This document shows positions 297 through 16,393 of a stretch of 16,393 nucleotides of DNA, one piece after another. Numbering within the stretch: the stretch's first letter is position 1; each line of letters begins with the position of its first letter. The stretch lies in IMG/VR virus record IMGVR_UViG_2778261657_000002; one strand, written 5' to 3'. This DNA is from a virus. Lineage: Duplodnaviria > Heunggongvirae > Uroviricota > Caudoviricetes. Under the pieces are notes generated by a model. That model was not told the DNA's origin and did no database searches. It was given only the letters and a program-made list of their open reading frames with translations. A program made the position numbers and the translations under genes.

Positions 297-1337
297 CTAA
301 GCTGTCGCGACATTTTTGCGACATTTTAAGGGGTTAAGTCGCACGGCATCTTCAAGGTGGCTTGGGGCGAAATGGGCATAACGCATTGTCATAGTGATGT
401 CAGCGTGGCCGAGAATTTTTTGCAGAACCAGAATGTTCCCGCCGTTCATCATAAAGTGGCTGGCAAATGTATGGCGCAGTACATGGGTAAGCTGGCCGGA
501 GGGGAGTTCAATGCCTGCGCGTTCCAAAGCAGAGCGGAACGCGTTATAGCAGGGTTTGGGGAACAGAGCGCCTTTCGTTTCAGGCAATTCGGATAGAAGT
601 TCATCATCAAGGGGGATTGTTCTGTTGCGCTTCCCTTTGGTTTTGACGAACGTAACTTTATCGCCTGCGATCTGAGAGCTTTTCAGCGTTGCCGCTTCAT
701 TCCATCTTGCGCCGGTCGCAAGACAGATTTTTACGACTAGCTCCAAGTATTTTACTTTGCTTCGTTTGCATTCCAGCAAAAGCAGCTCAATTTCTTCAGC
801 AGTGAGGAAAGCCATTTCGGTTTCATCAGTACGATACTGTCTGACGTTTTCCAGTGGGTTGGGGGCTGACCATTCCCCGATTCGTTTCAGCTCGTTGAAC
901 ATAGCCAGGAAGTAAGCATGTTCAAGGTTCATTGTTTTCGGGGAAACCTTGGATACTCTGCTAGTGCGGGCATAATGCCCATCAAGCCTTTTTGCGCGGT
1001 AGGCCGTGAACAGCTGGGCATTAAACTCTGTAGCTAGCGGGAATCCCATGCACTCTGCCGCCCAGGTCATAGCGTCTTTGCGCTTTTGACCATTGCGCAA
1101 AGCTACTCCGTGGCGTTCATACCACATTGTGATCAGGTCTATTAAAGTTCGTTTGTCCTTCCCTTCACCCAGCCAGGGCGCACTGTCTACTTTCTGAAGC
1201 GTATGGTTCTCAAATGCCAGGGCTTCCCCCTTCGTGGCAAATTTTTTACGTATGCGCTTCCCGTTCTTACCATTACTACGGTTGACGGTGTAGAAGTCGG
1301 CGATCCATTCGCCTGTCGGAAGTTTACGAACACTCAT
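297..1337 (-). CDS. int: Phage tyrosine integrase (site-specific recombinase)
   Basis: The C-terminal catalytic region carries the tyrosine-recombinase signature LTHVLRHTFASHF...ILGHADITMTMRYAH (R, H-x-x-R and the nucleophile Y). It lies immediately downstream of the cI-like gene, with the cI stop and int ATG arranged as TGAaATG, as in 186. The ORF track starts at a TTG at 1346; I prefer the in-frame ATG at 1337. Confidence 0.93.
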   Translation of the reverse strand: MSVRKLPTGEWIADFYTVNRSNGKNGKRIRKKFATKGEALAFENHTLQKVDSAPWLGEGKDKRTLIDLITMWYERHGVALRNGQKRKDAMTWAAECMGFPLATEFNAQLFTAYRAKRLDGHYARTSRVSKVSPKTMNLEHAYFLAMFNELKRIGEWSAPNPLENVRQYRTDETEMAFLTAEEIELLLLECKRSKVKYLELVVKICLATGARWNEAATLKSSQIAGDKVTFVKTKGKRNRTIPLDDELLSELPETKGALFPKPCYNAFRSALERAGIELPSGQLTHVLRHTFASHFMMNGGNILVLQKILGHADITMTMRYAHFAPSHLEDAVRLNPLKCRKNVATA

Positions 1338-1338
1338 T

Positions 1339-1917
1339 TCATTCAATCGTCAGAACAATGCGGCCGATGATTTTTATATCGTCAATACCGCAGTCAAAAG
1401 CCATACCTACGCCGCTTACTCTAACTTTTCCCACAGGGATGCGTGTTAGTGTTCTAACGCTGGTTTTACCTTCAACTTCGACAAGCCAAACATCGTCATA
1501 AACTTCAGTAAAGTGTTGATCAACAATGTATTGCATTGTGTTATCAATCACACAGATAGGATTCTGCGGTAAAGGTTTGCCAGGTAAAAAAGTAACCTTA
1601 TCGAGCATTAGGAAACCAGACTCATAGAGTTTTCCGTCCACAATCTTCTTGCGTGGCAATTTCATGATGTCTAATTCGTCATCGTTAAACTTTCTACCTT
1701 GTCCAGTCGCAAGCCATTCCAGAGTAGCTCCTGTTTCAGCCATACATCTAACAACGATATCAGCTGGAAAAAAATCCCTCTTATACCGGTTAGCCAGACT
1801 GCTGCTTGCTATATCAAGATGTTCGGCTAGGGCTAGTTTTGTGTTGAATCCATACGCTTGGATAACTCTATCTAGTACCTCAGCTCCGCCATGAGAAAAC
1901 TCAATTTGTAGATTCAC
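1339..1917 (-). CDS. cI: 186-type CI immunity repressor
   Basis: 192 aa, the length I recall for phage 186 CI. N-terminal HTH-like segment (VLDRVIQAYGFNTKLALAEHLDIASSSLANRY). It is transcribed divergently from the apl/cII operon and sits directly upstream of int. The start is a GTG with an AAGG ribosome-binding site about 10 nt upstream. Confidence 0.85.
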   Translation of the reverse strand: MNLQIEFSHGGAEVLDRVIQAYGFNTKLALAEHLDIASSSLANRYKRDFFPADIVVRCMAETGATLEWLATGQGRKFNDDELDIMKLPRKKIVDGKLYESGFLMLDKVTFLPGKPLPQNPICVIDNTMQYIVDQHFTEVYDDVWLVEVEGKTSVRTLTRIPVGKVRVSGVGMAFDCGIDDIKIIGRIVLTIE

Positions 1918-2036
1918 GAAAGTTTTACCTTGAAATCTTGCGCGGAGTGAGTTTAAACTCCGCTTTGTAGGTTTAAGTGAATATTGACAGTTACAGCCCT
2001 GTATTGCCGTACAGGTTAACTTATGGAGTTTGCCTC
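1918..2036. promoter_or_regulatory. Lysis/lysogeny switch region between cI and apl (candidate face-to-face pR/pL promoters and operators)
   Basis: Intergenic region between divergent cI and apl. It contains a consensus -35 hexamer TTGACA (1984..1989, plus strand), an inverted repeat GCGGAG-N10-CTCCGC (1942..1963) enclosing the perfect palindrome GAGTTTAAACTC (1949..1960), and a CTGT-N8-ACAG palindrome (1999..2014). Promoter assignment is inference from 186 biology. Confidence 0.5.
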
Positions 2037-2258
2037 ATGCGTCCGAACATTACAATCATCATCCCAGAGCCATACCTGCCTTTAGACGAGTATTGCCGCC
2101 GTACTGGTACCAACAAAGAAACCGCCAGGAACCTGATCGAATACGGGAAATTACCTATTAAGCCGAAGGGTAAGCAGAAGAAAGGCCTGGTCGAAGTCAA
2201 CATGGCCGCGCTCACTATTCAGGCTTTAAGCGAATGTGACATTTCGCTTAACGCGTAA
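2037..2258 (+). CDS. apl: Apl/Cox-like excisionase and transcriptional regulator
   Basis: Small basic protein (73 aa from the ATG at 2037, with a GGAG ribosome-binding site 8 nt upstream) and first gene of the rightward operon opposite cI, the position of apl in 186 and cox in P2. The ORF track's longer 93-aa version begins at a GTG inside the switch region. Confidence 0.7.
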   Translation: MRPNITIIIPEPYLPLDEYCRRTGTNKETARNLIEYGKLPIKPKGKQKKGLVEVNMAALTIQALSECDISLNA

Positions 2259-2288
2259 TCCATCCTACGGATTAGGGAGAGGCAAACA

Positions 2289-2792
2289 ATGTTTGATTAC
2301 CAGACCTCTAAACATGCGCACTTTGATGCGGCTTGCCGAGCATTTGCAATTGAGCACAATCTTGAAGATGTGGCCGCTGCCGTTGGTATGAGGCCACAGA
2401 TCCTGCGTAATAAACTGAACCCAGCGCAACCGCACCGCCTGACCTGTGATGAACTTTTGGCTATCACGGATTACACCGAAGATGCGCGTTTACTGGATGG
2501 GATGCTGGGGCAGATTAACTGCCTTCCATCCGTACCGGTGAACAATGCAACAGAAGGCAACATGCAACTGTGTGCACTGAGCGCCACAGCCAGTGTGGGC
2601 GCGATTGCTGGGGAAGCCGTATCAGCTGGTCATATGACCGCCGCCCGCCGTACTCAAATTCTGGATCGTGCCCGAGATGCAATCCGTAGCTTATCCGTGC
2701 TGGCTTATACCGTTGAAAGCCGTATTCACTCTGCGCCGGTTTTGGCCGCTGCGGTGGATCTGGTCACAACCAACGCCACCGGCCTGATGTGA
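2289..2792 (+). CDS. cII: CII-like lysogeny establishment activator
   Basis: 167 aa, directly after apl. The N-terminus (MFDYQTSKH...ACRAFA...LRNKLNP.QPH) resembles what I recall of 186 CII (169 aa). A GGGAGAGG ribosome-binding site precedes the ATG. Confidence 0.75.
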   Translation: MFDYQTSKHAHFDAACRAFAIEHNLEDVAAAVGMRPQILRNKLNPAQPHRLTCDELLAITDYTEDARLLDGMLGQINCLPSVPVNNATEGNMQLCALSATASVGAIAGEAVSAGHMTAARRTQILDRARDAIRSLSVLAYTVESRIHSAPVLAAAVDLVTTNATGLM

Positions 2793-2801
2793 GGGAGAAC
2801 C

Positions 2802-2975
2802 ATGAAAGCGTTTGTCACTTACCTGAAAAACGAATCACCGGCCATGCAATTGCCCAGTGGTTCAACGGGCTGGATTGAACTGCCGAACGGTCAGCGCTGG
2901 AACCCTGGCCACATGTACAAATTCAATGGCCAGCAGCCGCGTCGCCCGTGGTGGCGTCGTCTGATGGGGCTATAG
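2802..2975 (+). CDS. Hypothetical small early protein (57 aa), not in the ORF track
   Basis: ATG at 2802 preceded by GAGGGAGA. It translates to MKAFVTYLKNESPAMQLPSGSTGWIELPNGQRWNPGHMYKFNGQQPRRPWWRRLMGL and stops with TAG at 2973..2975. It fills the gap between cII and the next ORF in the same orientation. Confidence 0.45.
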   Translation: MKAFVTYLKNESPAMQLPSGSTGWIELPNGQRWNPGHMYKFNGQQPRRPWWRRLMGL

Positions 2976-2984
2976 GGGGACGCT

Positions 2985-3413
2985 ATGGCGATTAGCCAGG
3001 AACAGCAAAAGCGCGGGCTGGAGCATTTAAAACAGATCCGCCGCAAATACTTCAGCGAAAGCAGCGAGGCCGCTGAATGGTGGGACAACTTGACACCGGA
3101 GTGGCGCGGCGTAGTACTTCATGCTGCTGCGGTTACTTCTGGTACCGGGGCATTTAAAGCCCATTTAAGCAAGTGCTGCTGGCGTGAGCTTTATGAACGC
3201 CTGGGCTATCGGGACATGATTCAACTGCGCCAGGGCATTTCACGGGCGCGGTTAACGTTTGAAGGTTTCGGCAGTTTACGTGACAGCGATTTTTCGAAAC
3301 GTACCGCGAACCGCCCAATCAAGAAGGTTCATCCAATTTATAGCAGCAGCGGGGTGCAGATGGTGGTTGCACCTCATATTGTCCAGAAGTTACAGCAACA
3401 GGGGAATCACTGA
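2985..3413 (+). CDS. Hypothetical early protein (142 aa)
   Basis: ORF with a GGGGGA ribosome-binding site, in the early rightward operon; no recognisable motif. Confidence 0.6.
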   Translation: MAISQEQQKRGLEHLKQIRRKYFSESSEAAEWWDNLTPEWRGVVLHAAAVTSGTGAFKAHLSKCCWRELYERLGYRDMIQLRQGISRARLTFEGFGSLRDSDFSKRTANRPIKKVHPIYSSSGVQMVVAPHIVQKLQQQGNH

Positions 3414-3814
3414 TGTCCATTATTTCGGTTGAAGGTAAATCACTAGGGGCAGAGCTGGCTGTGTGGGGCGTCCCGCATAACTACGCATTAGCGTTTGCAG
3501 AGAAAAGCACCAGTAAAAATGGGCGTATCGCTTTGCATCCGTTCTTCTTCAACGACACTGAACACATGACAAATCCGCGTCACTGGCTGGCGATCAATGC
3601 TGCTTTCTGGTGCTGCGTATATCGCGAAGCGAAAAGCAAAGAAGCCCAGATAGAAGCGCTGGCGGGGATTCGTGCAATTTTCTATACAGCCGGGGCGTTG
3701 GGCGTTGGCGAGATAAAAGCGCTGATCCAGGAGTGGTGGCGGATAACCTATGAGCTGCACCTGATTCCGGCACCGAACTACTCAGCCGCCACAGTACAAC
3801 CCACTTTTCACTAA
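3413..3814 (+). CDS. Hypothetical early protein (133 aa)
   Basis: Its start overlaps the previous stop (TGATG), indicating translational coupling; no recognisable motif. Confidence 0.6.
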   Translation: MSIISVEGKSLGAELAVWGVPHNYALAFAEKSTSKNGRIALHPFFFNDTEHMTNPRHWLAINAAFWCCVYREAKSKEAQIEALAGIRAIFYTAGALGVGEIKALIQEWWRITYELHLIPAPNYSAATVQPTFH

Positions 3815-3881
3815 TTAACAGCCTGAATTTTTTGGCCACGGTTCAAGTGGCCGGGGATTCTTTTGCCTTAAGGAAACCAAA

Positions 3882-4115
3882 ATGCACATGACACGTCAGG
3901 ATTTACCCGCAACAAAATCAGGCACCGACCTGCTGGCCATGCTCACCAAAGCCACGCAGGAAGGTAAAGCCGCAGCAGCTGATCTGTGTTCCACCCGTCT
4001 GGATAAGCTGGCCACTCATGCGGCCAATGAAGGTTTAAGCGCAACGGAAATCGTTGAGTTAATCCGCGAAGAAGCCGCAGCGATTTGCAGCAAAGGCGGT
4101 GCGGCATGGAATTGA
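3882..4115 (+). CDS. Hypothetical small protein (77 aa)
   Basis: AAGGAAA ribosome-binding site 7 nt upstream of the ATG; Ala-rich, probably helical; its 3' end overlaps the exonuclease start. Confidence 0.5.
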   Translation: MHMTRQDLPATKSGTDLLAMLTKATQEGKAAAADLCSTRLDKLATHAANEGLSATEIVELIREEAAAICSKGGAAWN

Positions 4116-4810
4116 GCACTCGCAATCAACTTTTTTCGGCCATTTTGGGTGGGGTGGTTTCTGGTGCCAGAGCTAAAGAAGGGGCTTCGTTGCGCGATGT
4201 GATTCGCCAGTGTTGGAGGATCACCGATCAGTCTCTGTATTTTTCCGACCGTCTGGAAACCGAACAACAGATAGCAAAGCGCTGGATTGATAAGGGCTTT
4301 GTCATTCTTGATACAGAAACCACAGGACTAGGATTTGATGATGAAATTGTAGAAATTTCGATCATCGACTGTGCTGGTTACGTTTTGCTTAATACGCTGG
4401 TCAAGCCATCGAAATCTATTCCAGAAGCGGCAACTGCAATTCACGGTATTACGGATGAAATGGTTGCTAATGCACCATCATGGTTGGAAATTCTGCCGAA
4501 AGTATTGGAGTTAACAAGTAAAGGCTGGGTCGCATATAACGCAAAATTTGATGCGCGTATGTTGCGCCAGTCTGGTGGGGATTATGAACAGCATGAGGAT
4601 ATATGCACCCCTGAGTGCGTAATGCAGCTGTACGCAGATTATAACGGTGAATGGGATGTTGTACGCCGTAAAACCCGCTGGAAACGACTTGTGGATGCAG
4701 CGGCGGCGCTTAAGGTTGATGCCGGAGAAGGTGCACCACATAGAGCGTTGTATGACTGCAATCTGACGCTTGGTGTGATCCTTGCTATTGCAGAAGGCGG
4801 TGCAAAATGA
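4106..4810 (+). CDS. DnaQ-like 3'-5' exonuclease (DEDDh family)
   Basis: Exo I motif ILDTETTGL, Exo II motif YNAKFD and Exo III motif H-x4-D (HRALYD) are all present in the correct order. The ATG at 4106 is preferred over the TTG at 4085 used by the ORF track. Confidence 0.85.
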
Positions 4811-5136
4811 CAATCAAAATCCACACGATAAAGATTGCGCCGAAATACCTTGATGCAGTAGTGGCTGGCCAGAAAAAGGCCGAACTGCGAAAAAACGATC
4901 GCGGGTACAAAACCGGTAATGTTCTTTCACTTTGTGAGTGGAAGCACGGGAAATACACCGGGCGTGAGTGGGCGGCGGTTATCACCCATGTTTTTCCTGT
5001 AAATGAAATTATCGCTGATACCGAAAACTGGGCGGTTTTGTCCATCTGTTCACTGTCGCCGCTTGAAGTGCTGGAATACATCATTTCAAACGGTGTCACT
5101 GAGGCGTTAGCTGGCGGAGGTCAATATGGCCGTTAA
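4807..5136 (+). CDS. ASCH/PUA-like (DUF3850-type) domain protein
   Basis: 109 aa. The N-terminal region ([40 protein letters not shown]) resembles the small beta-barrel ASCH/DUF3850 proteins common in phages. Its start overlaps the exonuclease stop (ATGA). Confidence 0.55.
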
Positions 5137-5986
5137 AACTCCGCTTAAATGGGTGGGCAGCAAAGCCCGCCTTATGCCTAAGCTGCGTCCGCACCTTCCA
5201 GAAGGTAAACGCCTGGTTGAACCGTTCGCAGGTTCCTGCGCCGTCATGATGAATACGGATTATGACGAGTATCTGATCGCAGATGTGAATCCTGATCTGG
5301 TTAATCTTTATAAGGCGATGGCGTATCACACTGATGCGCTGCTGAATGAGCTGGAGATCCTGTTTACTGCCAGTTCGTTAGGTGATGAAGAAAGCCGTGC
5401 CGTTTTCTATTACGCCGTGCGTGATGCTTTCAATCTTTCTGGTGGTAAGGCTGGTTCTGAATCTGTTGAAAATGCTGCGCGTTTCCTGTACCTGAATCGC
5501 CACTGCTTCAATGGCCTGTGCCGGTATAACCGCCGAGGACAGTTCAACGTCCCGTTCGGTAAGTACAAAAAGCCTTATTTCCCCGCTGATGAAATCCGCG
5601 CCTTTGCTGAAAAAGCGAAACGCGCAACGTTCATTACTGCCCACTATTCAGAAACACTCGATTTGGTTCGGGACGGGAATGACGTTGTTTACTGTGATCC
5701 GCCTTATCTGACTGAAAGCGACAATTTCACCGCTTACCATGAGCGCGGTTTTACGCATATGGATCAGGGGAGGCTGGCGCGTAAGTTGCGCCGTCTGGCC
5801 AGAAAAGGTGTGCCGGTTGTGGCCTCTAACGCCGATCTGGAAATGGTTCATTACCTGTACGCCGGATTTGAAGCCGTTCGCGTTAATGCCCCGCGAAGTA
5901 TTGGTGCCGCAGCTACATGCCAAAAGACGGCCGCTGAGTTGATTCTGAAGTCTCCGCTTGATTCCATTGTGGTGGCTTGTGCATGA
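5126..5986 (+). CDS. dam: Dam-family DNA N6-adenine methyltransferase
   Basis: Catalytic DPPY motif (VVYCDPPYL), N-terminal AdoMet-binding region (KWVGSKARL...EPFAGSCAV) and overall length typical of GATC-type Dam methylases. GGAGG ribosome-binding site. The target specificity is not shown by the sequence. Confidence 0.9.
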
Positions 5987-8004
5987 CGCTGGCAATAAAC
6001 GAACAATGCTATGCCGTTGATGCCTGGAGGCGGGAAACATTCGCGCCAGGCACTCCGGCAGACGCGACAATCACAGAACGCCGCCTGTGGGCTGTAAACC
6101 CGCAGGATTATGAATGGCGATCCCGGTACCTGCATGAGATACCCGACTGGTTAGCCGGGTATTTTGGCCGTCGTTACGAAAAGCTTTTTTCTGGCCGTGA
6201 CGGGCGTCGCCGTGCCAATACATTCCTGCGCAAAACAATCGGTGAGAATGTATTGCCACGTCTGCGCAAAGTGGCTGCGCGTTACTCGCTGGCCGCTGAT
6301 GCTGCTGATCTTCCTTTTGGTAAGTCGCTGGAGCGCTTGCCGTCACTAGACCGTCCTGATCTTAAAAAACTGGCTGGCCAGATATCTGGCTGGATTTCCC
6401 AGTCACTTTATGACTTCACCGAACAGTTTGATTCCGGCGCTGACGACGCCAGAGAGCTGCATCGCCGCACCCTGGAATCATACCGCCATCTTTGTGCCTG
6501 TTGCCTGATGCTGAATAACCAGCCGCCGTACTGGGCTGAACATGAGGCCAATGAAGGTCAACTGGAAATGCGTAAGGCGGAATCCGGGATACTGCGCATG
6601 ATGGCGCCGGAATGGTGGTACCTGCGTTTTAAACGTGCTCGTGATACGCAGCGCGAGCACATGGCCATTACGGTGGGACAGGTGCAAAAAGCGGCCAGCG
6701 CTTATGTATCTCGCAAAACACTGGGCGAATGGATAGACCAGAAAAAGCGGAATCTGGAGTTCTTTAAAAAGTTTGATCTGCTGAATGATGAGGGGCTGCG
6801 CATTGCACTGGACAGCATGGTGCACCGCAGCGTTGCAAATCCGGCGATCCGTCGATGTGAACTAATGGTAAGAATGCGAGGGTTCGAAGATATGGCCAAT
6901 GAAGAAGGGCTGGCCGGTGAGTTTTACACTATCACCGCGCCATCACGTTTCCATGCGGTTCACAGCAAAGGGGGCTTTGTATCGCAATGGGATGGAAGTA
7001 CACCGCAGGATACCCAGCGCTATTTATGCGGCGTATGGGCAAAAGCACGCGCAGCGATCTCGCGTGCGGGTATTCATGTATTTGGGTTTCGGGTTGTTGA
7101 GCCTCACCATGACGGGACACCGCACTGGCATATGTTGCTTTTTATGCGTCCGCAGGACGTGGACACGGTGCGCGATATTCTTTGCTATCACGCCAGAATT
7201 ACCGATTCTGAAGAACTGCAATCTGAAAAGGCGCTGAAGGCACGTTTTCATGTTGAAGCTATCGATCCCGCCAAAGGTTCGGCCACGGGCTACATCGCGA
7301 AATACATTTCAAAAAATATTGATGGTTTTGCGCTTGATGGTGAGCAGGACGAAGAAACCGGCGAAAACCTGCGTGATATGGCTAAGTCCGTTTCCGCGTG
7401 GGCTTCACGCTGGCGTATTCGCCAGTTTCAGCAGATTGGTGGTGCGCCGGTAACCGTCTGGCGTGAGCTGCGTCGGTTGCGGGATCAGGTACTGACAGAT
7501 CGCAGAATGGATGCGGTTCTGGCCGCTGCTGATGTCGGGGACTGGGCTGCATATACCCAGGCGCAGGGAGGGGCACTGGTTGCCCGCCGTGATCTGGTTG
7601 TTCGTCTGGCCTATGAAATTACGGAACAGGGCAACGAATACGCGGAGGACGTGCAGCGCGTACAGGGTGTTTATTCTCCTTTGGTTCCTGATTCAGAAGT
7701 TTGCACCCGTCTGGTTAAGTGGCAAAAGGTTGCGAAGTTGGCCGAAGCGCCAGCGGAGGCGGGTTTTTCTGGCGGCAACGCCGCCCCTTGGAGTTCTGTC
7801 AATAACTGTACGGAAGGGGGAACCCGCAGACGGTTAAAACTGGAATTATGCAGTCGGGGTTTTGATGGTTCTGATGAAGAAATAGCGATTCTCCTGCGGG
7901 GTAGTGGTTTGAGATTTGGTCAGGGCGCTCTGATTTACCGCAACGGACGGCTTAAAGAGACTCAAAACGAGCCATTACAGGAGCTGTGGCCGGGGTGGTT
8001 ATAG
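5983..8004 (+). CDS. A: Replication initiation protein gpA (rolling-circle nickase)
   Basis: About 674 aa, with the metal-binding HUH-type motif (TPHWHMLLF) and the paired active-site tyrosines (GYIAKYISK) characteristic of the P2/186 A protein. The start overlaps the dam stop (ATGA). The origin should lie inside this gene but I could not locate it. Confidence 0.9.
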   Translation: MTLAINEQCYAVDAWRRETFAPGTPADATITERRLWAVNPQDYEWRSRYLHEIPDWLAGYFGRRYEKLFSGRDGRRRANTFLRKTIGENVLPRLRKVAARYSLAADAADLPFGKSLERLPSLDRPDLKKLAGQISGWISQSLYDFTEQFDSGADDARELHRRTLESYRHLCACCLMLNNQPPYWAEHEANEGQLEMRKAESGILRMMAPEWWYLRFKRARDTQREHMAITVGQVQKAASAYVSRKTLGEWIDQKKRNLEFFKKFDLLNDEGLRIALDSMVHRSVANPAIRRCELMVRMRGFEDMANEEGLAGEFYTITAPSRFHAVHSKGGFVSQWDGSTPQDTQRYLCGVWAKARAAISRAGIHVFGFRVVEPHHDGTPHWHMLLFMRPQDVDTVRDILCYHARITDSEELQSEKALKARFHVEAIDPAKGSATGYIAKYISKNIDGFALDGEQDEETGENLRDMAKSVSAWASRWRIRQFQQIGGAPVTVWRELRRLRDQVLTDRRMDAVLAAADVGDWAAYTQAQGGALVARRDLVVRLAYEITEQGNEYAEDVQRVQGVYSPLVPDSEVCTRLVKWQKVAKLAEAPAEAGFSGGNAAPWSSVNNCTEGGTRRRLKLELCSRGFDGSDEEIAILLRGSGLRFGQGALIYRNGRLKETQNEPLQELWPGWL

Positions 8005-8081
8005 CGGTGTAAGTATGTGAAAGGCATTCATTTGTCAGTAGATGGCAGGAAATTAAATTTCACAATTCGTGCTTTAAGGTG

Positions 8082-8101
8082 TACTGTATGTATATCCAGT
8101 T
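8082..8101 (+). promoter_or_regulatory. Candidate LexA (SOS) box
   Basis: TACTGTATGTATATCCAGTT matches the E. coli LexA consensus TACTGTATATATATACAGTA at 17 of 20 positions, with CTG-N10-CAG retained. It lies 22 bp upstream of the ATG at 8124. Confidence 0.5.
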
Positions 8102-8123
8102 ATTTATTGCTTGTGGGGGCTAA

Positions 8124-8330
8124 ATGGATCTTTTGGAGGCGTCGGCACAGCTGGAACGCATTGAGTTATTGGCCAAAATTGCCCATATTTACGAAAGTAA
8201 CCAGAGAGAGAAAACAATCGCTTTGGCCTGGATTGGAGAGCTTGCGGGAGAGGTTCGCGAAATGGTAAAAAAGGAAGGGCAACGCCCCCAGAATGGGGGC
8301 ATTTTAGGCGGCGGGGGGCATTTTCAGTAG
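8124..8330 (+). CDS. Small ORF downstream of the LexA box; candidate Tum-like SOS-inducible antirepressor
   Basis: 68-aa ORF (MDLLEASAQLERIELLAKIAHIYESNQREKTIALAWIGELAGEVREMVKK...) with a balanced, helical-looking composition and a GGGGG stretch 5 nt upstream of the ATG. Position after gene A and behind a LexA box parallels tum of phage 186. The function is inferred from context only. Confidence 0.4.
   Translation: MDLLEASAQLERIELLAKIAHIYESNQREKTIALAWIGELAGEVREMVKKEGQRPQNGGILGGGGHFQ
8262..8300 (-). terminator. Candidate intrinsic terminator for the minus-strand late operon
   Basis: On the minus strand, immediately after the ogr stop: GCCCCC-attct-GGGGGC hairpin, then gttGCCCttcc and a TTTTTT run. 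The T-run is not directly adjacent to the main stem, so this is tentative. Confidence 0.35.
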
Positions 8331-8627
8331 GTCTAATGCCATCTGGCGCTGATCGGGTGAAAGTGCATTCAGTATTTTTTGCACCATCGCATCACCCGTT
8401 TTAGCGCTGGGGCTGAGAGTGTGGGAGAACGTCAGATTCATAACAAACGTGTGGCCACACTCAACATCTGAACAGGCGCAGTAAATATCCGCAATCTGCC
8501 GGTGCTTCCGGTTCGTTTTACGAATAACAGCCTTTGAGCCGCATTCCGGGCATTCGATTTTCAGAACTCGCATATTCCATGCTCCAGCTGTTAAATGATG
8601 CCTGGATTTTAGCCTGTTTCGCCTCAT
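8304..8627 (-). CDS. ogr: Ogr/Delta-family zinc-finger late-gene transcription activator
   Basis: Contains C-P-x-C ... Y-C-x-C-x4-C-x2-T-F (ECPECGSKAV...IYCACSDVECGHTF), matching the Cys pattern I recall for P2 Ogr and 186 B. The ATG overlaps the portal stop (ATGA). An internal Met (MRVLKIECPEC, start at 8573) is an alternative start. Confidence 0.8.
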   Translation of the reverse strand: MRRNRLKSRHHLTAGAWNMRVLKIECPECGSKAVIRKTNRKHRQIADIYCACSDVECGHTFVMNLTFSHTLSPSAKTGDAMVQKILNALSPDQRQMALDLLKMPPAA

Positions 8628-9685
8628 GCCGCACCCTTATCCGTTGATTCTGTGTAACTTAAATCAAAGTTAAGGTGTAGCCTTTTCGGTATTTCGGGAT
8701 CGCCGTTAACGGCCAGCATGAAACGGCGCTGGATGGGGGCTATTTCGCTTTTCTTGTAAATGCGTTCAGCCTTTTCAACATCCCCCAGTCCGGCAGTGTT
8801 CTGCGGGACAATACCGGCGAGGCCAGCAGGGAAACGGTGCGCGTTCAGAATGTCCTGGGCGCTGATGTTTTTGATATTGGCAAATTCATCTTTTGCAGAA
8901 ATATCCCCCATTTCGATGAACTTGATTGCATCCCCATCCCCGCCTGGTATGTTCACCAGAATAGTGGAGAAGTTACCGATACCTTTGCTGTCACGCAGCT
9001 GCTGTTCAATTTCTTCTTCCATTTCATCCGTCATACTGGGATCGCGGGTATAAAGAATACCGCCTGTGTGCGCACCGTTGTGGTAATAGCGGCGTCGGAA
9101 AATGACCGCTTCACTGTTAAGTAACGCGGAATGCACACCGCCGATGTAGTCTGGCAGTCCGTAGATATGCTGTTGCGGGTCATACATTTTGATAAAGATA
9201 ATATCTTCTTCTGGCCATACCTGCGGTTCCCCTTCCTGTAACACCACGTAGTCACCGGGTTTATCCTGGGCGTTATCTCTGACTTTGCGGCGGCGAATAT
9301 ACAGACCGGGCAAGGGTTCAAGTGCGATCACGTCGCCCCAGCCGTTACGAATTTTGGCAATCGCAATATCCCCAAAGGTTATATAGTCAAACGCTGCCGC
9401 TTCCAGCTGGTCGTGAATAAGCCCGCCCCCCTGATAGTCTGAAACAATCATGTTTTTACGGGCGTGAATGATGCCGCCGTGCTGACCGTTAAGATTAATC
9501 AGTTGTGCGAGTGCCAGCCGGTCAATCGGCTGGGTGAAGTGATCGGCGGCATTGTCGTACCAGATATCACGGTAATCTGTGCCGGTAGTCAGAACCGGTT
9601 CAGGTTTGCCGAATGTGATAATGCTCATCTTTTTTGATTTGTCGCCGCGCTGGTCGCGCTTAACAAAGCGTTTCTTTTTACTCAT
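8624..9685 (-). CDS. Q: Portal protein (gpQ-like)
   Basis: 353 aa (P2 gpQ is about 344 aa). It lies immediately downstream of, and overlaps by ATGA, the terminase large subunit gene, and is divergent from the scaffold and capsid genes, as in P2. Confidence 0.85.
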   Translation of the reverse strand: MSKKKRFVKRDQRGDKSKKMSIITFGKPEPVLTTGTDYRDIWYDNAADHFTQPIDRLALAQLINLNGQHGGIIHARKNMIVSDYQGGGLIHDQLEAAAFDYITFGDIAIAKIRNGWGDVIALEPLPGLYIRRRKVRDNAQDKPGDYVVLQEGEPQVWPEEDIIFIKMYDPQQHIYGLPDYIGGVHSALLNSEAVIFRRRYYHNGAHTGGILYTRDPSMTDEMEEEIEQQLRDSKGIGNFSTILVNIPGGDGDAIKFIEMGDISAKDEFANIKNISAQDILNAHRFPAGLAGIVPQNTAGLGDVEKAERIYKKSEIAPIQRRFMLAVNGDPEIPKRLHLNFDLSYTESTDKGAA

Positions 9686-11457
9686 GCTGCCTCTTTCCTT
9701 ACACCCCAGCGGGATTTCGGTTTGTTTTCATAGTTAAGGGGTTCGTTATGCAGACCGTGGGTAATCGCCCAGAATGCCTCTGCGTGGCCGGTATCCTGGC
9801 TGCGGTCAGCGACAAACGTCATGGTGTTGCCGCTTTGTGTGGTGGTTCGGCGCACAGACATAAAGCTGGCGGCGATCTCTTTCATATTTTTATCCCACTC
9901 AATACGCTGGCTTTCCACCACGTCCACCGCTTTCAGTACCAGCTTATTTTTTGTGTTCAGGTCGTAACGAATGGGGACGGCCACGCGCATGGCAAAATGC
10001 TGAATGTTGTCAAAAACACCCTGGCCAATGCCGGTAACGTCCACCCCCAGATAAGTGAAGTTGTATTTTTTGAACAACTGCTCGATCTGTTTTGCCTGGT
10101 ACCGGAAGTTCATGCCTTTCCAGTAAATCACCTTCAGAACGCGGAACTTCTCCACGGCGAGCATCGGTGGGGCGATGATGACAAAACAGGACAAATCCCC
10201 GCTGCGAGCCGGGTCAAAGCCACCCCACACTGGCCTGTCACCGAATGGCCGCGCTGCATCAGGGTTGTGATCCTGCCAGGTGTCGATTTCAACTCCGCAG
10301 GCTTCCAGGTCGGAAAAGCTGAAAACGGAGTCTTTGCTGTCAACGAACACGCACATATAGAGCATGTTAAAAGTGGCGTCGTTGTAGCGGTTGCGAAGTT
10401 TCTCGATGTTCGCCAGGTTGAAACCGCCCGTAATGGCATCTTCCATCGTAATGACGTAGCGCCATTGCCCATCCGGGCAGAGTCGCCCGCCGTCACGCAT
10501 TTCGTTAAAAGACGGAAACTTAATGGCCGCACGTTTTTTACTGCCCTGTTTCCACTCATCGCCCGTCCAGAACGGGTAAGCCTGGTGCGTTTTTGCTGAT
10601 GGCGTTGAAAAATAGGTGGTACGCCACTTGTCATGTGTGGCCATTGCGCTGGCCACTTCGTTAAGTTTTGCAAAGTTTGGCACCCAGAAATATTCGTCAC
10701 AGTACAGGTGGCCACTGTAGGACTGGGCGGTGTTTTTGTTGGTGGAGAGAAAACGCAGTTCTGCGCCGTTGCTTAAGCGGATCGGGTTGCCGGTCAGCGT
10801 AATACCGAAATACTGCTCTGCAATATTCACGATGTAAGACCGGAACACTTCAGCCTGAGCCTTTGACGCTGACAGAAAGATTTGCGGAGCGCCGGTCATC
10901 ACCGCGTTTTCAAACGCTTCAAACGCAAAATACCAGGTCGCACCGATCTGGCGGCTTTTCAGGATGTTCCTGACAAGCTGGCCAATGTTATTGCGCAGGT
11001 GTTTCTGATATTCAAAAAGATGTTCCTCAGCCCATGCGTCAAAGTCCTCCTGCGTCAGCGAGGTAATATCGTTTTTCTTGTATTTCCGTTTACTGCGCGG
11101 TTCGTCGTCATTGTTGTCTCGTGCAGCTGCTTGCCCGGAACTCTGACCGCTGGCCATTTTCTCTTTGTGTTTATTACTCTGCGCACGCAGTTTCGTGGCA
11201 TGAGCAATGAGCATGTCCATTTCTTTCAGGTCTAGATCGGTTTTGTTATCGCGGCTGGCCAGCAGCTGGTAACGGCGTTCAATTGCTTCCTCTGTGCTTT
11301 CAAAACTGAGCAAATCCGCCCAGCTGTATTTCTCCGCCCAGTAGTAAACGATCCGCGCATTCGGCAGATTTAATTCAGATGCGATTTCCTTTGGCGTATA
11401 GCGGCGCAGATAAAGTGCGCGAACAACGCCTTTTAATTCTTCAGAGTATTTAGCCAT
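9682..11457 (-). CDS. P: Terminase large (ATPase) subunit (gpP-like)
   Basis: 591 aa (P2 gpP is about 590 aa). Terminase-type deviant Walker A (KSRQIGAT, compare T4 gp17 SRQLGKT). First gene of the leftward late operon. Confidence 0.9.
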   Translation of the reverse strand: MAKYSEELKGVVRALYLRRYTPKEIASELNLPNARIVYYWAEKYSWADLLSFESTEEAIERRYQLLASRDNKTDLDLKEMDMLIAHATKLRAQSNKHKEKMASGQSSGQAAARDNNDDEPRSKRKYKKNDITSLTQEDFDAWAEEHLFEYQKHLRNNIGQLVRNILKSRQIGATWYFAFEAFENAVMTGAPQIFLSASKAQAEVFRSYIVNIAEQYFGITLTGNPIRLSNGAELRFLSTNKNTAQSYSGHLYCDEYFWVPNFAKLNEVASAMATHDKWRTTYFSTPSAKTHQAYPFWTGDEWKQGSKKRAAIKFPSFNEMRDGGRLCPDGQWRYVITMEDAITGGFNLANIEKLRNRYNDATFNMLYMCVFVDSKDSVFSFSDLEACGVEIDTWQDHNPDAARPFGDRPVWGGFDPARSGDLSCFVIIAPPMLAVEKFRVLKVIYWKGMNFRYQAKQIEQLFKKYNFTYLGVDVTGIGQGVFDNIQHFAMRVAVPIRYDLNTKNKLVLKAVDVVESQRIEWDKNMKEIAASFMSVRRTTTQSGNTMTFVADRSQDTGHAEAFWAITHGLHNEPLNYENKPKSRWGVRKEAA

Positions 11458-11619
11458 ACGGATAATTATGCCGTGGTTGTGATGAAAAAACGGTGGTGTT
11501 AATTCGTGTCTGTTCGGTAAAGCGTTATAACCGAACTGTTCAGAATAAAGCGTAATGCAGTGGCGGTTTTATTTGGCAATAATTGAGTTCGCAGGGTCAG
11601 TGAATAAATCAGGGGGGAT
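11458..11619. promoter_or_regulatory. Divergent late promoter region between P and O
   Basis: Intergenic region between divergently transcribed terminase and scaffold genes, where P2 has its Ogr-dependent late promoters. Contains the inverted repeat GTTCGGT-N11-ACCGAAC (11512..11536). I could not find the exact TGT-N12-ACA spacing I recall for P2 late promoters. Confidence 0.4.
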
Positions 11620-12420
11620 ATGTCGCATTTAAAAACTGACTGGCTGTGTGTTGCCACAGAAGGCGATACGGTTGATGGCAGGGTCATGGAACGGCAATGG
11701 ATTATTGACATGGGGGAAACCTATGATGTCACCAATTATGCCGCACTAATCTGGCCTGAACATGAACGATATGCCGGTAATTTTGGCGAAGTGCTAAAGG
11801 CGATGTGGCAGGACGGGGAAGATGGGCTGGCACGATTATATGTGAGCCTGTGTCCTAACAAGCGCCTGTTGTATGCCAATGATGAAGGGCAATTGCTTTA
11901 TTTCTCTGTTGAGCCAGAACTTAACTGGCGCGGAGGTGAGCGAACGTATCTGGGCGGACTGGCCGTAACGGACAATCCCGCCAGTGTGGGCACTACACGG
12001 TTGCGCTTTAGTCGGCGCAGACTATCAAAACAGGGATATTACAGTTGCGTAATTTCCCGTGACGGAAAAATTAAGCAGGAAGAACTGATGAAAAAAACCT
12101 GGCACCATTTATTTGGCATTAAGCCAAAGTTTGAAAGCGAAGGTCAGCAGGATGATACGCAGCAGGGTGATGATAAATTGCAGGCGCTTGCGAATGCTGT
12201 TAACGATCTGGAAGCGCGAGTGGGGGCAATTGAAACACAACTGAGCACTGTTCAGGAAGATGTGGATACTATTGTTGAAGTTGTGGACACGGAAGAGTTT
12301 GCGGCCATTCGTGATAATGCGAAAGAAATCGTAACCCGTTTTAACGATCTGGATAATAAGAATACCCGCTCACCGGGGCGTAAAATTTCAGAAAAAGCCG
12401 GGAAATATAATTTTCTGTAA
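11620..12420 (+). CDS. O: Capsid scaffolding protein (gpO-like)
   Basis: 266 aa. The segments TEGDTVDGRVM and YLGGLAVTDNPASVGTT match what I recall of P2 gpO (GDTCDGRVI, YLVGLAVTDDPASLGT). AGGGGGG ribosome-binding site. Confidence 0.85.
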   Translation: MSHLKTDWLCVATEGDTVDGRVMERQWIIDMGETYDVTNYAALIWPEHERYAGNFGEVLKAMWQDGEDGLARLYVSLCPNKRLLYANDEGQLLYFSVEPELNWRGGERTYLGGLAVTDNPASVGTTRLRFSRRRLSKQGYYSCVISRDGKIKQEELMKKTWHHLFGIKPKFESEGQQDDTQQGDDKLQALANAVNDLEARVGAIETQLSTVQEDVDTIVEVVDTEEFAAIRDNAKEIVTRFNDLDNKNTRSPGRKISEKAGKYNFL

Positions 12421-12483
12421 TTCGCTTTAACGCTGATTAGCCCAGAATAAATTTTATATATCGCTTAATTGCGAGGGAGTTTT

Positions 12484-14532
12484 ATGCACCTTAATAATCG
12501 TGCGCGGGATTTACTGGATAAATATTCGGCGGGGATGGCGCAGCATTTTGGCGCACGTGATACCAGTCGTTATTTTTCCCTGAATGACCCGCAGGAAAAT
12601 GCGCTGCGTCTTGCGTTGCTGGAGTCCGTCGAGTTCCTGAACATGATCACCTGTCTGGATGTTGACCAGCTGAGTGGTCAGGTGATTTCTGTCGGTTCTT
12701 CCGTGCTGCATACCGGCCGCAGTGAGAATGGCCGTTTTATTCGTCGTGTGGGTGTTGACGGTAATGACTATTCGCTGGTTGAGACAGACAGCTGCGCCGC
12801 GTTGCGCTGGGATCTGCTTTCGGTTTGGGCAAATGCGGGTAAGGATGAAAACGAGTTTTTCAATCTTGTCCAGGCATTCACCACACAGGCTTTTGCACTG
12901 GATATGCTGCGTATTGGTTTTAATGGTAAAAGCCGCGCAAAAACCACTGACCCGGAAGCCAACCCGAACGGCGAGGATGTGAACGTTGGCTGGCATGAGC
13001 GTATGAAAACGCTGCTGGGCGGCAATCAGATTATGACCGATCCCGTGGTGCTCGATGAGGCCGGGGATTACAAGTCACTGGATGCAATGGCGTCCGATCT
13101 GATTAACGCCAAAATCCCGGCGCAGTTCCGCAATGACCCGCGTCTGGTTGTCCTTGTCGGTGCCGATCTGGTCGCTGCTGAACAGTACCGACTGTATCAG
13201 GCAGCTGACCGTCCGACTGAAAAAATTGCTGCGCAGATGCTGGGGAGCACCATTGCTGGCCGTCAGGCCATTATCCAGGATTACATCTGGTACCAGTTAC
13301 CTGATGGTTCGCTTTACGTCGGCGGCGTAGAAAAGTCATTGTTTGCCGGTCGTCCAGTAGAAATCCCGTCAGAGTTCAGCCAGGGGGCTGCTGGCGGTAA
13401 CTCTGTGACATTACCAGTGATCCAGACTATACGGCCAGGGGTGGAGATGAACGGTGAACGCGTGACTAAAGTTCACCTGACTAATGACACGATGGCGATC
13501 ACATGGACGCCGAGAAACCGCGCAACGGGTAAACCTTTGCAGAAAACACCAGCGCAACGGCAGATTGAAAGCCATTACCCGGAACTGGCATCCGGGCTTC
13601 ATTTGCCAAAGATGGCCAGAGTCGTGGCGCATTCAGAGCCGGTAAAAAGCGGTAACTTTGCCGATCCCTTCCGGCCACGTTACGCCGTGGACGTGCAGCT
13701 GCTTGACGCAGACGGAAATCCGGACAATCAGACGCCTGTTTATTCAGCGGTGCCGCTGCCGGTACCAATGGCCGGGAATGATTCAGGTATGTTTCAGTTC
13801 CCGCCAGAAGGGACGCTGGTTGAGGTCGCATTCACAGGAGGCAGACCGGATAAACCTTTTATCAGGCAGACGCTGCCGAATGGTACCAGTCTGCCGGACG
13901 TTAAACCCGGTGAGCAATTGCAGCAGCAGCGGGAAGAAGTATCCCAGAGGGTGACTCTGGCGGGTGACTGGGTAAGGCAGACCGATCAGACCATCAGTGA
14001 AACATCGATGGTGCGAACGGTAAAAGCAGATACAGAACAACGTGATCTGGTCAGTCGCGAAACCACGGTTAAAGCCACGGATAAAACCATTGTGGTGGGG
14101 ACCGCCACCCTGCTAGCCGGAGCCTTTCAGCAGGTCAGTGCCGGGGATTTTAGCCAGGCCGTGAAAGGTAACAGGCTGGCCAGCATTGAAGGAAACGAAG
14201 AAACGGACATAGCAGGACAGCAGTCCATTAAAGTGGGCGGTGCTGTAGCCGTGGAGGTTGGCGAAAGCCTGACAGAGAAGATTGCCGCGCTGCGTAAATC
14301 AGTGGCCGCTGGCGGTCAGCAGGTCATGGGGGAAACAGTCCATATTGGCAGTGAGAATATCAACGCCCTGACCATGATGCTGGACACTATTGATTTACTG
14401 GCAGAACTGGCGCTGCAATGCGCGAACCATTCACACCCCACCGTTGGGACTCCAACCAATGCCGCCGCGTTCACACAGACGGCGACGAAAGCCGGGCAGA
14501 CCCGGAGCAAGTACCAGAACATCATTGCCTGA
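12484..14532 (+). CDS. Chimeric ORF: N-terminal gpN-like major capsid region fused in frame to a C-terminal gpV-like baseplate spike region
   Basis: About 682 aa from the ATG at 12484 (GAGGGAG ribosome-binding site), roughly twice the size of P2 gpN (about 357 aa). The N-terminal third to half has capsid-like segments (GFNGKSRAKTTDPEANP...VGW, GDYKSLDAM, DPRLVVLVGADL). The C-terminal part has an OB-fold-like segment (FPPEGTLVEVAFTGGRPDKPF) and a terminal HxH motif (CANHSHPTVG) like the iron-binding spike tip of gpV-type proteins. No stop codon or frameshift separates the two parts. Confidence 0.6.
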   Translation: MHLNNRARDLLDKYSAGMAQHFGARDTSRYFSLNDPQENALRLALLESVEFLNMITCLDVDQLSGQVISVGSSVLHTGRSENGRFIRRVGVDGNDYSLVETDSCAALRWDLLSVWANAGKDENEFFNLVQAFTTQAFALDMLRIGFNGKSRAKTTDPEANPNGEDVNVGWHERMKTLLGGNQIMTDPVVLDEAGDYKSLDAMASDLINAKIPAQFRNDPRLVVLVGADLVAAEQYRLYQAADRPTEKIAAQMLGSTIAGRQAIIQDYIWYQLPDGSLYVGGVEKSLFAGRPVEIPSEFSQGAAGGNSVTLPVIQTIRPGVEMNGERVTKVHLTNDTMAITWTPRNRATGKPLQKTPAQRQIESHYPELASGLHLPKMARVVAHSEPVKSGNFADPFRPRYAVDVQLLDADGNPDNQTPVYSAVPLPVPMAGNDSGMFQFPPEGTLVEVAFTGGRPDKPFIRQTLPNGTSLPDVKPGEQLQQQREEVSQRVTLAGDWVRQTDQTISETSMVRTVKADTEQRDLVSRETTVKATDKTIVVGTATLLAGAFQQVSAGDFSQAVKGNRLASIEGNEETDIAGQQSIKVGGAVAVEVGESLTEKIAALRKSVAAGGQQVMGETVHIGSENINALTMMLDTIDLLAELALQCANHSHPTVGTPTNAAAFTQTATKAGQTRSKYQNIIA

Positions 14533-14622
14533 CCATTCCAGACAGCCCACAAAACGCGGGGTTTGTCGTTTTCTCAGTTCCTTGATAGGATTATTGCATA
14601 CTCAAATGATAGGAATAGGGAT

Positions 14623-14955
14623 ATGAAAAATTTCATTATATTAGCTGTAGGAGCAGCAGTTTCATTCAATGTGTTTGCGGCTGAGGTTGTTTATGTGCCA
14701 ACAGATACGAAGGCTAGTTACACGATTTTAGATAAGACTCGCGACGGCAGCATGGCTACTATAACAACCGAAAGAAAGGGGCCGTCTGGAACATCATATT
14801 CAAAGCGGCTGTACGACTGTACTGCCGGGACAGTTAAATATCTTGGAGACGGTGAGACCATCGAGCAGATGAATAACTCGGCACCAGATCCAAATATGGC
14901 CCCTATAGTTGACCGCTCAATTGCATACTACATTGGACAAAAAGCCTGTCAGTAA
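14623..14955 (+). CDS. Small exported protein of unknown function (110 aa with a signal peptide)
   Basis: N-terminal MKNFIILAVGAAVSFNVFA-AEV is a typical Sec signal peptide with an AXA-like cleavage site. Two cysteines in the mature part, AGGAA-type ribosome-binding site, followed by a strong intrinsic terminator. GC content is lower than in the phage genes. The ORF track's longer form starts at 14563, but the signal peptide begins at M21. Confidence 0.6.
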   Translation: MKNFIILAVGAAVSFNVFAAEVVYVPTDTKASYTILDKTRDGSMATITTERKGPSGTSYSKRLYDCTAGTVKYLGDGETIEQMNNSAPDPNMAPIVDRSIAYYIGQKACQ

Positions 14956-14995
14956 CTACGTTCTTATATCGGTTGATATGAATTGAACACACCTT

Positions 14996-15020
14996 AACCC
15001 GCATTGTGCGGGTTTTTTTG
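14996..15020 (+). terminator. Rho-independent terminator
   Basis: AACCCGCA-ttg-TGCGGGTT hairpin followed directly by TTTTTTT, 40 nt after the stop of the exported-protein ORF. Confidence 0.75.
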
Positions 15021-15532
15021 TACCCACCACCAGACCGCACAGAACGCTCTCAGCAGGCGGGACAACACTAGGGTAACCACTGCGACACCGCAATAAGATC
15101 AAATTCACAGCGACGCTCTGAGGTAGCCACATGCAGACAAAATAAATCTTTCGCAGACAAAAACGGCACTACACCGCACCCGCCTGCGGTTTCTGGATCG
15201 ATAAATTTTTTCAGTTTTATTTTTCTACAAACCAGACTGTCATCTCGCGCCAGCACTGGTGGCTTTGCGGAAAACCCAAACTGAAAAGATTGAAAAGAAT
15301 TTCAGTGTTTATCAGTTTTTCGTGGGGATAAGGTTGTTGTGAGTATTCTATCTTTATGATTTATATATATTATTTTTATTTTCTTTGATGTTATATCGAA
15401 GTCGTGTTTCAGCCTGATTTATTGAACTGATTGATTTTATGGCAATTTACCATATAGATGGCTTGGATTTTATTGCAATAAATCATAAAATAGATCATTC
15501 AAAAATCAATCATTCTTTATGCTAGGTATCTT

Positions 15533-16393
15533 ATGGATAGCAAGTTGAATCTTGATGAGGCAGGTAGAATCGCTTGGCAGCATGCAGCACTTGTTTTGAG
15601 CAAGAAAATTGGTATCGGTTCTAAAAAATTTAATGAAGACCTGAAGGTTTTAATTAATCAATTTGGGAATATTGAAAACATTTATCAATATCACTTTGGC
15701 ATGGTTCCAATCGATCCTGATTTGATTCGCGTACTCGATAAAAAATTTTCCAACCTAAATTTTAAGTTTGAAGTATTACAATTTAATGATGAACTATATC
15801 CCAACGCATTGAGACAAATTTATGGGATTCCCCCAATCTATTATTATAGAGGCGATGTCAGTTTGTTGGGGATTGAGGATAGTATCTCTTTTGTTGGGAC
15901 GCGAAATCTTGATGAAAAAGCGTATATTGAACATGGTGTTGATGTTATAAAAAGATTATTTTCTGCGGGCTATAAGGTCATCGTAAGTGGATTGGCTAAA
16001 GGTTCGGATACCCTCGGACATAAAACAGCAATAGAATTAGGGGGGCGAACCATTGCTGTATTAGGAACACCTCTTGATGTATCTTATCCAGCGGAAAATA
16101 AAGTGTTGCAAAATCAAATAGCAACTGAGCATTTAGTAATTACTGAATATCCTATCGGGATTGGTAGTTTTGGAACATACTTCGCAAATAGAAACCTCAC
16201 TACCGTAAGTTTATCGCACAAAGGAATAGTAGTTGCACGTGCTGGTGATAAAAGCGGTACTCAATATGCGATCAAAACTTGTATTGAGCAAGGTAAGCCG
16301 GTTTACGTTTTGGAAAATAATATCTATGAGCCTGATTTTAAATGGGTAGAAAAATATAAAGATAAAATAAAAGTAATTAGAATGACAAAATAA
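15533..16393 (+). CDS. DprA/Smf-family (SLOG-fold) DNA-processing protein homologue
   Basis: 286 aa. The Rossmann-like core matches DprA signatures: PPIYYYRGDVSLL...ISFVGTRNL...VIVSGLAKGSDTLGHKTAIELGGRTIAVLGTPLDVSYPAENKVLQNQIA...LVITEYPIG...FANRNLTTVSLSHKGIVVARAGDKSGTQ (compare E. coli Smf VVSGLARGID..AH..AL..GG.TIAVLG.GLD.IYP..N..L). The gene is very AT-rich and stops at the last base of the window. Confidence 0.8.
   Translation: MDSKLNLDEAGRIAWQHAALVLSKKIGIGSKKFNEDLKVLINQFGNIENIYQYHFGMVPIDPDLIRVLDKKFSNLNFKFEVLQFNDELYPNALRQIYGIPPIYYYRGDVSLLGIEDSISFVGTRNLDEKAYIEHGVDVIKRLFSAGYKVIVSGLAKGSDTLGHKTAIELGGRTIAVLGTPLDVSYPAENKVLQNQIATEHLVITEYPIGIGSFGTYFANRNLTTVSLSHKGIVVARAGDKSGTQYAIKTCIEQGKPVYVLENNIYEPDFKWVEKYKDKIKVIRMTK

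Follow-up and report, generated by a model that had tools for sequence, protein, structure and literature searches.

Organization of the locus

The window, by which we mean the whole 16,393-nt stretch of DNA analyzed here, belongs to an E. coli prophage that is ESSI-2-like and of the 186 type within the P2 family (Peduoviridae). Over positions 1–13276, it matches a prophage of E. coli EC101 sited between mntS and mntR at 99.98% identity, and a 30-kb IMG/VR contig matches the same positions equally well (99.98%). The genes for lysogeny are those of a 186-type phage (integrase, 192-aa CI, Apl-like regulator, CII, and Fil), and the replication endonuclease gene A is followed by a 68-aa ORF, beyond which the minus strand carries ogr-like, portal, and large terminase genes. 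This agrees with the initial annotation, which had placed the ORF between gene A and the late genes. The features on which we draw below are as follows.

1339–1917, minus strand: 186-type CI repressor, 192 aa (Pfam Phage_CI_repr, E = 2.5e-25; Phage_CI_C, E = 6e-31), the presumed target of the antirepressor
5977–8004, plus strand: replication endonuclease gene A (from the ORF list and the PGAP annotation of a near-identical prophage), the upstream neighbor of the 68-aa ORF, as in 186
8059–8064, plus strand: −35 hexamer TTCACA, the same as the annotated −35 of 186 p95, with a 17-nt spacer to TACTGT (8082–8087)
8082–8101, no strand assigned: predicted LexA operator (SOS box) TACTGTATGTATATCCAGTT, which opens with TACTGT, six bases that also serve as the −10 hexamer
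8114–8119, plus strand: Shine–Dalgarno-like G-run TGGGGG, read from the sequence, 4 nt upstream of the ATG; a G-rich run is kept at the same spot in relatives
8124–8330, plus strand: 68-aa TumA-type ORF (from the ORF list), predicted to encode an SOS-induced antirepressor
8124–8258, plus strand: conserved core of that ORF (codons 1–45), a predicted helical hairpin homologous to the Tum N-terminus
8259–8330, plus strand: tail of the ORF (codons 46–68), weakly constrained and predicted to be largely disordered
8281–8303, minus strand: terminator-like stem–loop directly past the stop codon of the ogr-like gene and within the ORF tail, with a T-run at 8267–8272
8304–8573, minus strand: gene for an Ogr/Delta-like zinc-finger late activator (Pfam Ogr_Delta, E = 9.3e-20)
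13269–13276, no strand assigned: junction, with 8 nt of microhomology, left by the internal loss of about 13.8 kb, a deletion that renders the prophage defective

The ogr-like gene converges on the 68-aa ORF and overlaps its last 27 nt. An alternative upstream ATG would extend the ogr-like gene to 8627, and its product is given as 89 aa in the ESSI2_ev040 annotation versus 107 aa by PGAP. The stem–loop at 8281–8303 has a folding energy of −17.1 kcal/mol (z = −3.3), and equal stability was reached in none of 200 shuffles. On the plus strand, a terminator scan and folding revealed no clear terminator after the 68-aa ORF; a terminator-like hairpin on that strand lies at 8498–8512, inside the ogr-like gene. 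An SOS-driven transcript from the ORF would consequently continue antisense into the late activator gene. A search of positions 7900–8800 against Rfam gave no match.

The region is found in 24 of 5,426 complete E. coli genomes, and roughly one in two of the E. coli carriers has the 68-aa ORF called by PGAP. An overlapping 83-aa ORF (8017–8268) was considered as the gene and rejected, as it lies in another frame and spans both the promoter and the LexA box.

The initial annotation took the element for a remnant, and comparison with its closest intact prophages bears this out. In E. coli EC101, the match to window positions 13269–16393 is displaced by 13,775 bp relative to that of positions 1–13276, and the deletion begins within the P2-family major capsid gene and ends within a distal hypothetical gene, removing the 3′ part of the major capsid gene along with the small terminase, head-completion, tail, holin, M15 endolysin, tape measure, baseplate, and fiber genes. 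The junction creates a chimeric ORF of 687 aa (12469–14532), and it occurs in none of the 5,426 complete E. coli genomes.

We note in passing that positions 15533–16393, together with the matching stretch of locus L094, carry a gene named "DNA-processing protein DprA" by PGAP and several hypothetical genes, followed by mntR; a DprA-named gene at the cargo end of the prophage is unusual for a P2-like phage.

The LexA operator and its conservation

A near-consensus LexA box (17 of 20 positions) 22 bp upstream of the ORF had been claimed at the outset, and both figures hold: TACTGTATGTATATCCAGTT carries 3 mismatches in 20 positions relative to the consensus TACTGTATATATATACAGTA, and 22 nt separate its end from the ATG at 8124. 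On both strands of the window, positions 8082–8101 form the sole site with at most 3 mismatches to the consensus, and such a site arose in none of 200 dinucleotide-preserving shuffles. We also scored the site with a symmetrised position weight matrix of 23 E. coli operators, which serves as a proxy for one drawn from the published compilations; on this scale, the box reaches 26.3 bits, compared with 12.8–26.8 bits for the training operators and 26.9 bits for the box at p95 of phage 186. The second-best site in the window scores 13.6 bits, and the best site per shuffle averages 10.3 bits (n = 200; maximum, 23.0 bits). The box thus scores on a par with the best E. coli operators, and the matrix check envisaged in the initial annotation comes out in its favor.

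One further palindrome in the window drew our attention, a near-perfect repeat, CCCTGTATTGCCGTACAGGT, at 1997–2016 in the cI–apl intergenic region. Its CTGT-N8-ACAG core (1999–2014) was considered as a second LexA site and rejected, as it scores just 11 bits and has a G+C-rich center; at the switch promoters, the palindrome more probably serves as an operator for CI or Apl.

The arrangement of the operator within its promoter closely follows that of 186, for which the GenBank record gives a p95 −35 hexamer of TTCACA and a −10 hexamer, TACTGT, that forms the first six bases of the annotated LexA site. Of the 20 box positions, 17 are shared between the window and 186. In most ESSI-2-like relatives, the −35 region reads TTTCAC. 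A generic sigma-70 scan did not call the TTCACA/TACTGT pair, calling instead a weaker site at 8032–8059, so that our assignment of a p95-like promoter is made by analogy with p95 of 186 and from conservation.

To assess that conservation, we collected loci encoding relatives of the ORF (80 from IMG/VR and 8 from genomes); with the window and other fetched loci included, upstream sequence was available for 88. A CTG-N10-CAG box lies 14–32 nt upstream of the start codon in 87 of these 88 loci, most commonly at a spacing of 21–22 nt, and the 87 boxes score between 18.9 and 28.5 bits (median, 25.3). They comprise 35 distinct sequences, across which positions 1, 3–5, 14, and 16–19 are invariant and the center varies. 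Because the arms remain invariant around a variable center in so many different sequences, the pattern indicates selection for LexA binding, as opposed to recent common descent. When 22 diverse upstream regions are aligned, the fully invariant columns are those of the box arms and the start codon alone; the −35 region and the G-run are mostly kept, and the remaining intergenic sequence drifts.

The lone exception among the 88 loci, L020, has an insertion sequence inside its LexA box. The inserted element is a 1.3-kb member of the ISL3 family (L020 8022–9337, corresponding to window 8088–8095) that encodes a 406-aa DDE_Tnp_ISL3 transposase and is flanked by an 8-bp target duplication, ATGTATAT, within a prophage otherwise near-identical to that of the window. 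As the insertion parts the promoter from the tum-like gene, it has probably left this prophage non-inducible or misregulated.

The 68-aa product and its relation to Tum

The initial annotation had noted that in 186 the LexA-controlled p95 occupies the same position and that Tum is 146 aa long, and the 186 record states both. BLASTP aligns residues 4–41 of the window ORF with residues 5–42 of 186 Tum (32% identity over a short stretch of 38 aa, E = 2e-5). Given that the Pfam DinI domain of the 146-aa Tum spans residues 87–145, the match is to the non-DinI part of the protein. The ORF and the first 46 residues of Tum share matches to phrog_698 (the best PHROG of the ORF, E = 3e-22), phrog_8554, and phrog_1993, all three of which are labeled "unknown function".

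A profile of the family recovers P0130, a short 186-type protein. We rebuilt the profile without P0130 and scanned it against 932 six-frame ORFs from 186 and from parts of PSP3, a Yersinia phage, and ESSI2_ev040. Among these ORFs, it matches the tum ORFs only: that of ESSI2_ev040 (1e-25), the Yersinia "tum protein" (6e-18), 186 Tum (9.6e-15, a score slightly inflated by mis-called N-terminal extensions that translate the conserved LexA box), and PSP3 TumA (3e-4). The aligned core, LERIEL..K....AL.WI.EL, is unambiguous. A pairwise BLASTP of the ORF against PSP3 TumA detects no similarity. At the level of sequence, then, the ORF product is a homologue of the Tum N-terminus of 186, outside the DinI domain, with a weaker relationship to PSP3 TumA.

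Curated families do not cover this part of Tum. Neither Pfam nor NCBIfam has a family for the ORF or a model for the Tum N-terminal/TumA region, and at E values up to 1, the sole Pfam match of the ORF is to DUF2989 (12.1 bits against a cut-off of 23.8), with no antirepressor domain family among the matches. Both databases likewise find no DinI domain in the ORF, whereas 186 Tum matches DinI in each. Extending the search to all loci collected (23,310 six-frame ORFs), a small DinI profile matches in 186 and PSP3 only, and tblastn with the Tum C-terminus finds 186 only. We can therefore rule out two assignments: a DinI-family modulator of RecA filaments, as there is no DinI match and the structural model is a two-helix hairpin, and a full-length Tum of the 186 type (an antirepressor–DinI fusion), as there is neither a DinI domain nor an adjacent dinI-like tumB.

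The shortness of the ORF follows from the makeup of Tum itself, which is an antirepressor fused to a DinI-like half, the two halves being separate genes in PSP3 and Fels-2 (Lemire et al., PMC3121763); the window lineage keeps the first half only. In PSP3, the upstream half is the one that carries antirepressor activity, according to a personal communication cited via Bunny et al. 2002 (PMC3121763).

Coding constraint marks the ORF as a genuine gene: codons 1–45 are under strong purifying selection, with a pooled pN/pS of 0.20 at a pS of 0.66 (synonymous sites near saturation) and 17 invariant residues, compared with a pN/pS of 0.81 and a pS of just 0.36 in codons 46–68. The DNA of the tail is conserved because the opposite strand carries the last 27 nt of the ogr-like gene and its hairpin. 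An AlphaFold2 model places helices at residues 3–21 and 27–53, with pLDDT values of 86–95 over residues 1–50 that fall to 59 for residues 51–60 and 44 for residues 61–68. Constraint and model together suggest that the functional unit would be the N-terminal core of about 45–53 aa. A Foldseek search of the model against the PDB returned nothing at E ≤ 0.001 and generic hairpins only, and sequence searches of the PDB found DinI alone, for the Tum C-terminus, and no solved structure of the Tum N-terminus.

Relatives of the ORF are widespread in the Enterobacteriaceae, and every one of them is unnamed or "hypothetical" in the word-indexed search, which yielded 65 homologues in Escherichia, Salmonella, Citrobacter, Raoultella, Pluralibacter, and Cronobacter. 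An exhaustive profile search of 1.8 billion representatives gave 76 clusters at 50% identity, nearly all of them 45–112 aa long. Similarity to a known antirepressor and conservation of the ORF, two of the points on which the initial annotation had let its proposal depend, are thus both found, in the match to Tum and in these 65 homologues.

The allele in Escherichia phage ESSI2_ev040 (L002 4171–4389, compared with window 8000–8345) illustrates how the region may vary. The promoter, the LexA box, and the last approximately 40 nt are conserved, and between them the ORF body has been exchanged for an allele that belongs to the same family but has diverged strongly, a pattern of mosaic exchange limited to the antirepressor core. 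The deposited gene start lies upstream of the LexA box, giving a product of 86 aa.

A predicted SOS induction switch

Induction through LexA, Tum, and CI is the textbook mechanism for 186-like phages. In silico, the window has in common with the Tum/TumA type a LexA operator over its promoter, a transcription unit of its own right after gene A, homology to the N-terminus of Tum, and a 186-type CI without a matched autocleavage domain (a Pfam search of the window CI, which is 41% identical to that of 186, found no peptidase S24 match). We consider it likely that the region is an SOS induction module in which a LexA-repressed, stand-alone antirepressor of the TumA type acts on the 186-type CI. 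In this capacity, the 68-aa gene with its strong LexA site is very probably the ordinary DNA damage induction switch of the prophage, in an unannotated short form. The proposal of the initial annotation, that the ORF is a minimal or divergent equivalent of p95–tum, is upheld as far as the p95 layout, the box identity to 186, the homology to Tum residues 5–42, and the type of CI can speak to it.

The switch would be expected to work as follows. In an undamaged cell, LexA would occupy the operator at 8082–8101, and since the operator overlaps the −10 of the p95-like promoter, the promoter would be shut. Upon DNA damage, active RecA would promote self-cleavage of LexA, the promoter at 8059–8087 would fire, and the 68-aa protein would be made. 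Its N-terminal helical hairpin (about 45–53 aa) would then bind the 186-type CI and keep it off its operators, so that the early lytic promoter would be derepressed and apl, cII, fil, and gene A expressed. On the strength of the homology to Tum, the promoter layout, and the type of CI, we infer LexA binding in vivo, SOS-dependent transcription, and both the binding and the inactivation of CI. The window CI having no matched autocleavage domain and the window no other LexA site, the tum-like module is the only visible SOS input.

Because the capsid, tail, and lysis genes are lost, induction of this particular element could lead at most to derepression, excision, and replication, without particles or lysis. 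It is nevertheless reasonable to suppose that the particle-defective element may still derepress, excise, or replicate after DNA damage, since the deletion has spared int, cI, apl, gene A, and the tum-like module; for the host strain, this would mean a defective prophage that still answers DNA damage in one of these ways. More generally, the analysis offers a predicted function for a widespread small prophage gene that is unnamed everywhere and often uncalled by PGAP, and it predicts SOS inducibility, via a minimal antirepressor with a constrained core of about 45 aa, for the ESSI-2-like prophages of E. coli, Salmonella, Citrobacter, and relatives. A core of this size would also be a handy minimal system for studying how Tum-type proteins inactivate 186-type CI.

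How the core recognizes its target bears on the main alternatives. Cores at least 94% identical to that of the window pair with CIs that are 54–68% identical to the window's in the N-terminal domain and 66–88% in the C-terminal domain, and conversely, a CI 94% identical to that of the window accompanies a core only 71% identical. Core identity tracks the neighboring gene A, not CI; the Spearman correlations between core and CI (0.50 for the N-terminal and 0.63 for the C-terminal domain) are both confounded by shared ancestry. The lack of co-variation implies either that the core recognizes a conserved feature of CI or that its target is not CI. When the CIs partnered with one core type are compared, residues ~151–177 of the C-terminal domain vary least. 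A further possibility, speculative and rather unlikely as it stands, is that the DinI-less core is a broad-specificity, trans-acting antirepressor recognizing a conserved CI surface, with the defective remnant cross-inducing co-resident 186- or ESSI-2-type prophages and the read-through transcript timing the late genes. Were the broad specificity real, the module could be an SOS sensor that cross-induces heteroimmune relatives, in the manner described for the Gifsy antirepressors, which are able to work in trans against several repressors (PMC3121763).

If the target is instead not CI, the gene would be SOS-induced but its product would act elsewhere (for example, on a host or phage process in the SOS response), with prophage induction proceeding by another route. 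The absence of co-variation with CI type would be weak evidence for such a reading, which would also fit a protein that no curated family names, that PHROGs labels "unknown function", and that is predicted to form a generic helical hairpin with no significant PDB match. The homology of the ORF is, however, specifically to the Tum N-terminus, outside the DinI domain, and the 186 record states that CI is inhibited only by the longest Tum product, the one that includes the first 9 residues. Moreover, CI has no matched autocleavage domain and the window no second LexA site, so that no alternative SOS input can be seen through which the prophage might be induced. Taken together, these observations make a target other than CI improbable.

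We regard as still less probable, indeed as having only a slim chance of being correct, the reading in which the promoter serves chiefly to make an antisense transcript that controls the ogr/Delta-like gene through transcriptional interference or RNA pairing, with the ORF being secondary. The two genes do converge, with a 27-nt overlap and no strong plus-strand terminator between them, and the DNA of the tail is conserved where its protein is not; yet the first 45 codons are under strong purifying selection, and the box and ORF persist both in distant relatives (L078–L091) lacking a nearby ogr-like gene and in 186, whose B gene is located elsewhere. An antisense effect could be present as an added layer instead of the main function. 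Finally, that a LexA-like sequence and a small ORF should be chance, functionless intergenic features is scarcely credible and is already contradicted by the conservation data: PGAP omits the ORF from roughly half of its E. coli carriers, but no shuffle yields such a site, the box with its invariant arms recurs in 87 of 88 loci, the core has a pN/pS of 0.20, and the profile ties the ORF to Tum.

Returning to the preferred reading, that of a stand-alone antirepressor acting on CI, the best-studied counterpart is p95–tum of 186, in which LexA represses p95, and SOS derepression produces Tum, which inactivates CI and thereby opens pR (PMC7708051). The two systems share a site just past gene A, a −35 hexamer of TTCACA, a LexA box beginning at the −10, a homologous N-terminus of 40–45 aa, and as partner a 192-aa CI of the 186 type, 41% identical between them. 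Unlike 186 Tum, the window ORF lacks a DinI-like C-terminal domain, shorter products nested in the same frame, and a downstream orf97, and it converges on and overlaps an ogr/Delta-like gene, whose homologue in 186, B, sits at the far end of the late genes. Induction of DuoHS, a P2-like prophage of E. coli HS, is abolished when tum is deleted or LexA is non-cleavable (PMC12055606). The tum gene of DuoHS was considered as a member of the same subfamily and set aside, HS being outside the 24 complete genomes that carry the region; the deletion experiment therefore supports the general mechanism only.

Closer in form are the split versions of tum. TumA of PSP3 is a short stand-alone protein (60 aa) equivalent to the Tum N-terminus, encoded behind a LexA box after gene A, and the GenBank record of PSP3 notes tumA with "UV induction of prophage", followed by a DinI-like tumB. 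PSP3 differs in having this dinI-like tumB directly downstream, which the window lineage lacks, and in a much longer cI (861 nt, about 286 codons by the record coordinates). Fels-2 of Salmonella also has a split tum, with the antirepressor part as a separate gene. The "tum protein" of Yersinia phage vB_YenM_06.16-2 (60 aa), another short stand-alone homologue of the Tum N-terminus, forms a bridge between the two ends of the family, being 41% identical over 44 aa to the window ORF and 46% identical to the 186 Tum N-terminus; that phage differs in having several small hypothetical genes ahead of the portal gene, and the name "tum" is an annotation only.

In logic, the module also resembles GfoA and GftA of the Gifsy/Fels-1 prophages and AntC of N15, in each of which a LexA-repressed small antirepressor binds a non-cleavable repressor (PMC3121763), although these proteins show no sequence relationship to the window ORF and belong with other repressor families. 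Considered as a whole, the module appears to be an unannotated, LexA-controlled antirepressor of the known Tum/TumA kind, set apart from its counterparts in that it has no DinI partner and in that it converges on, and overlaps, a late activator gene.
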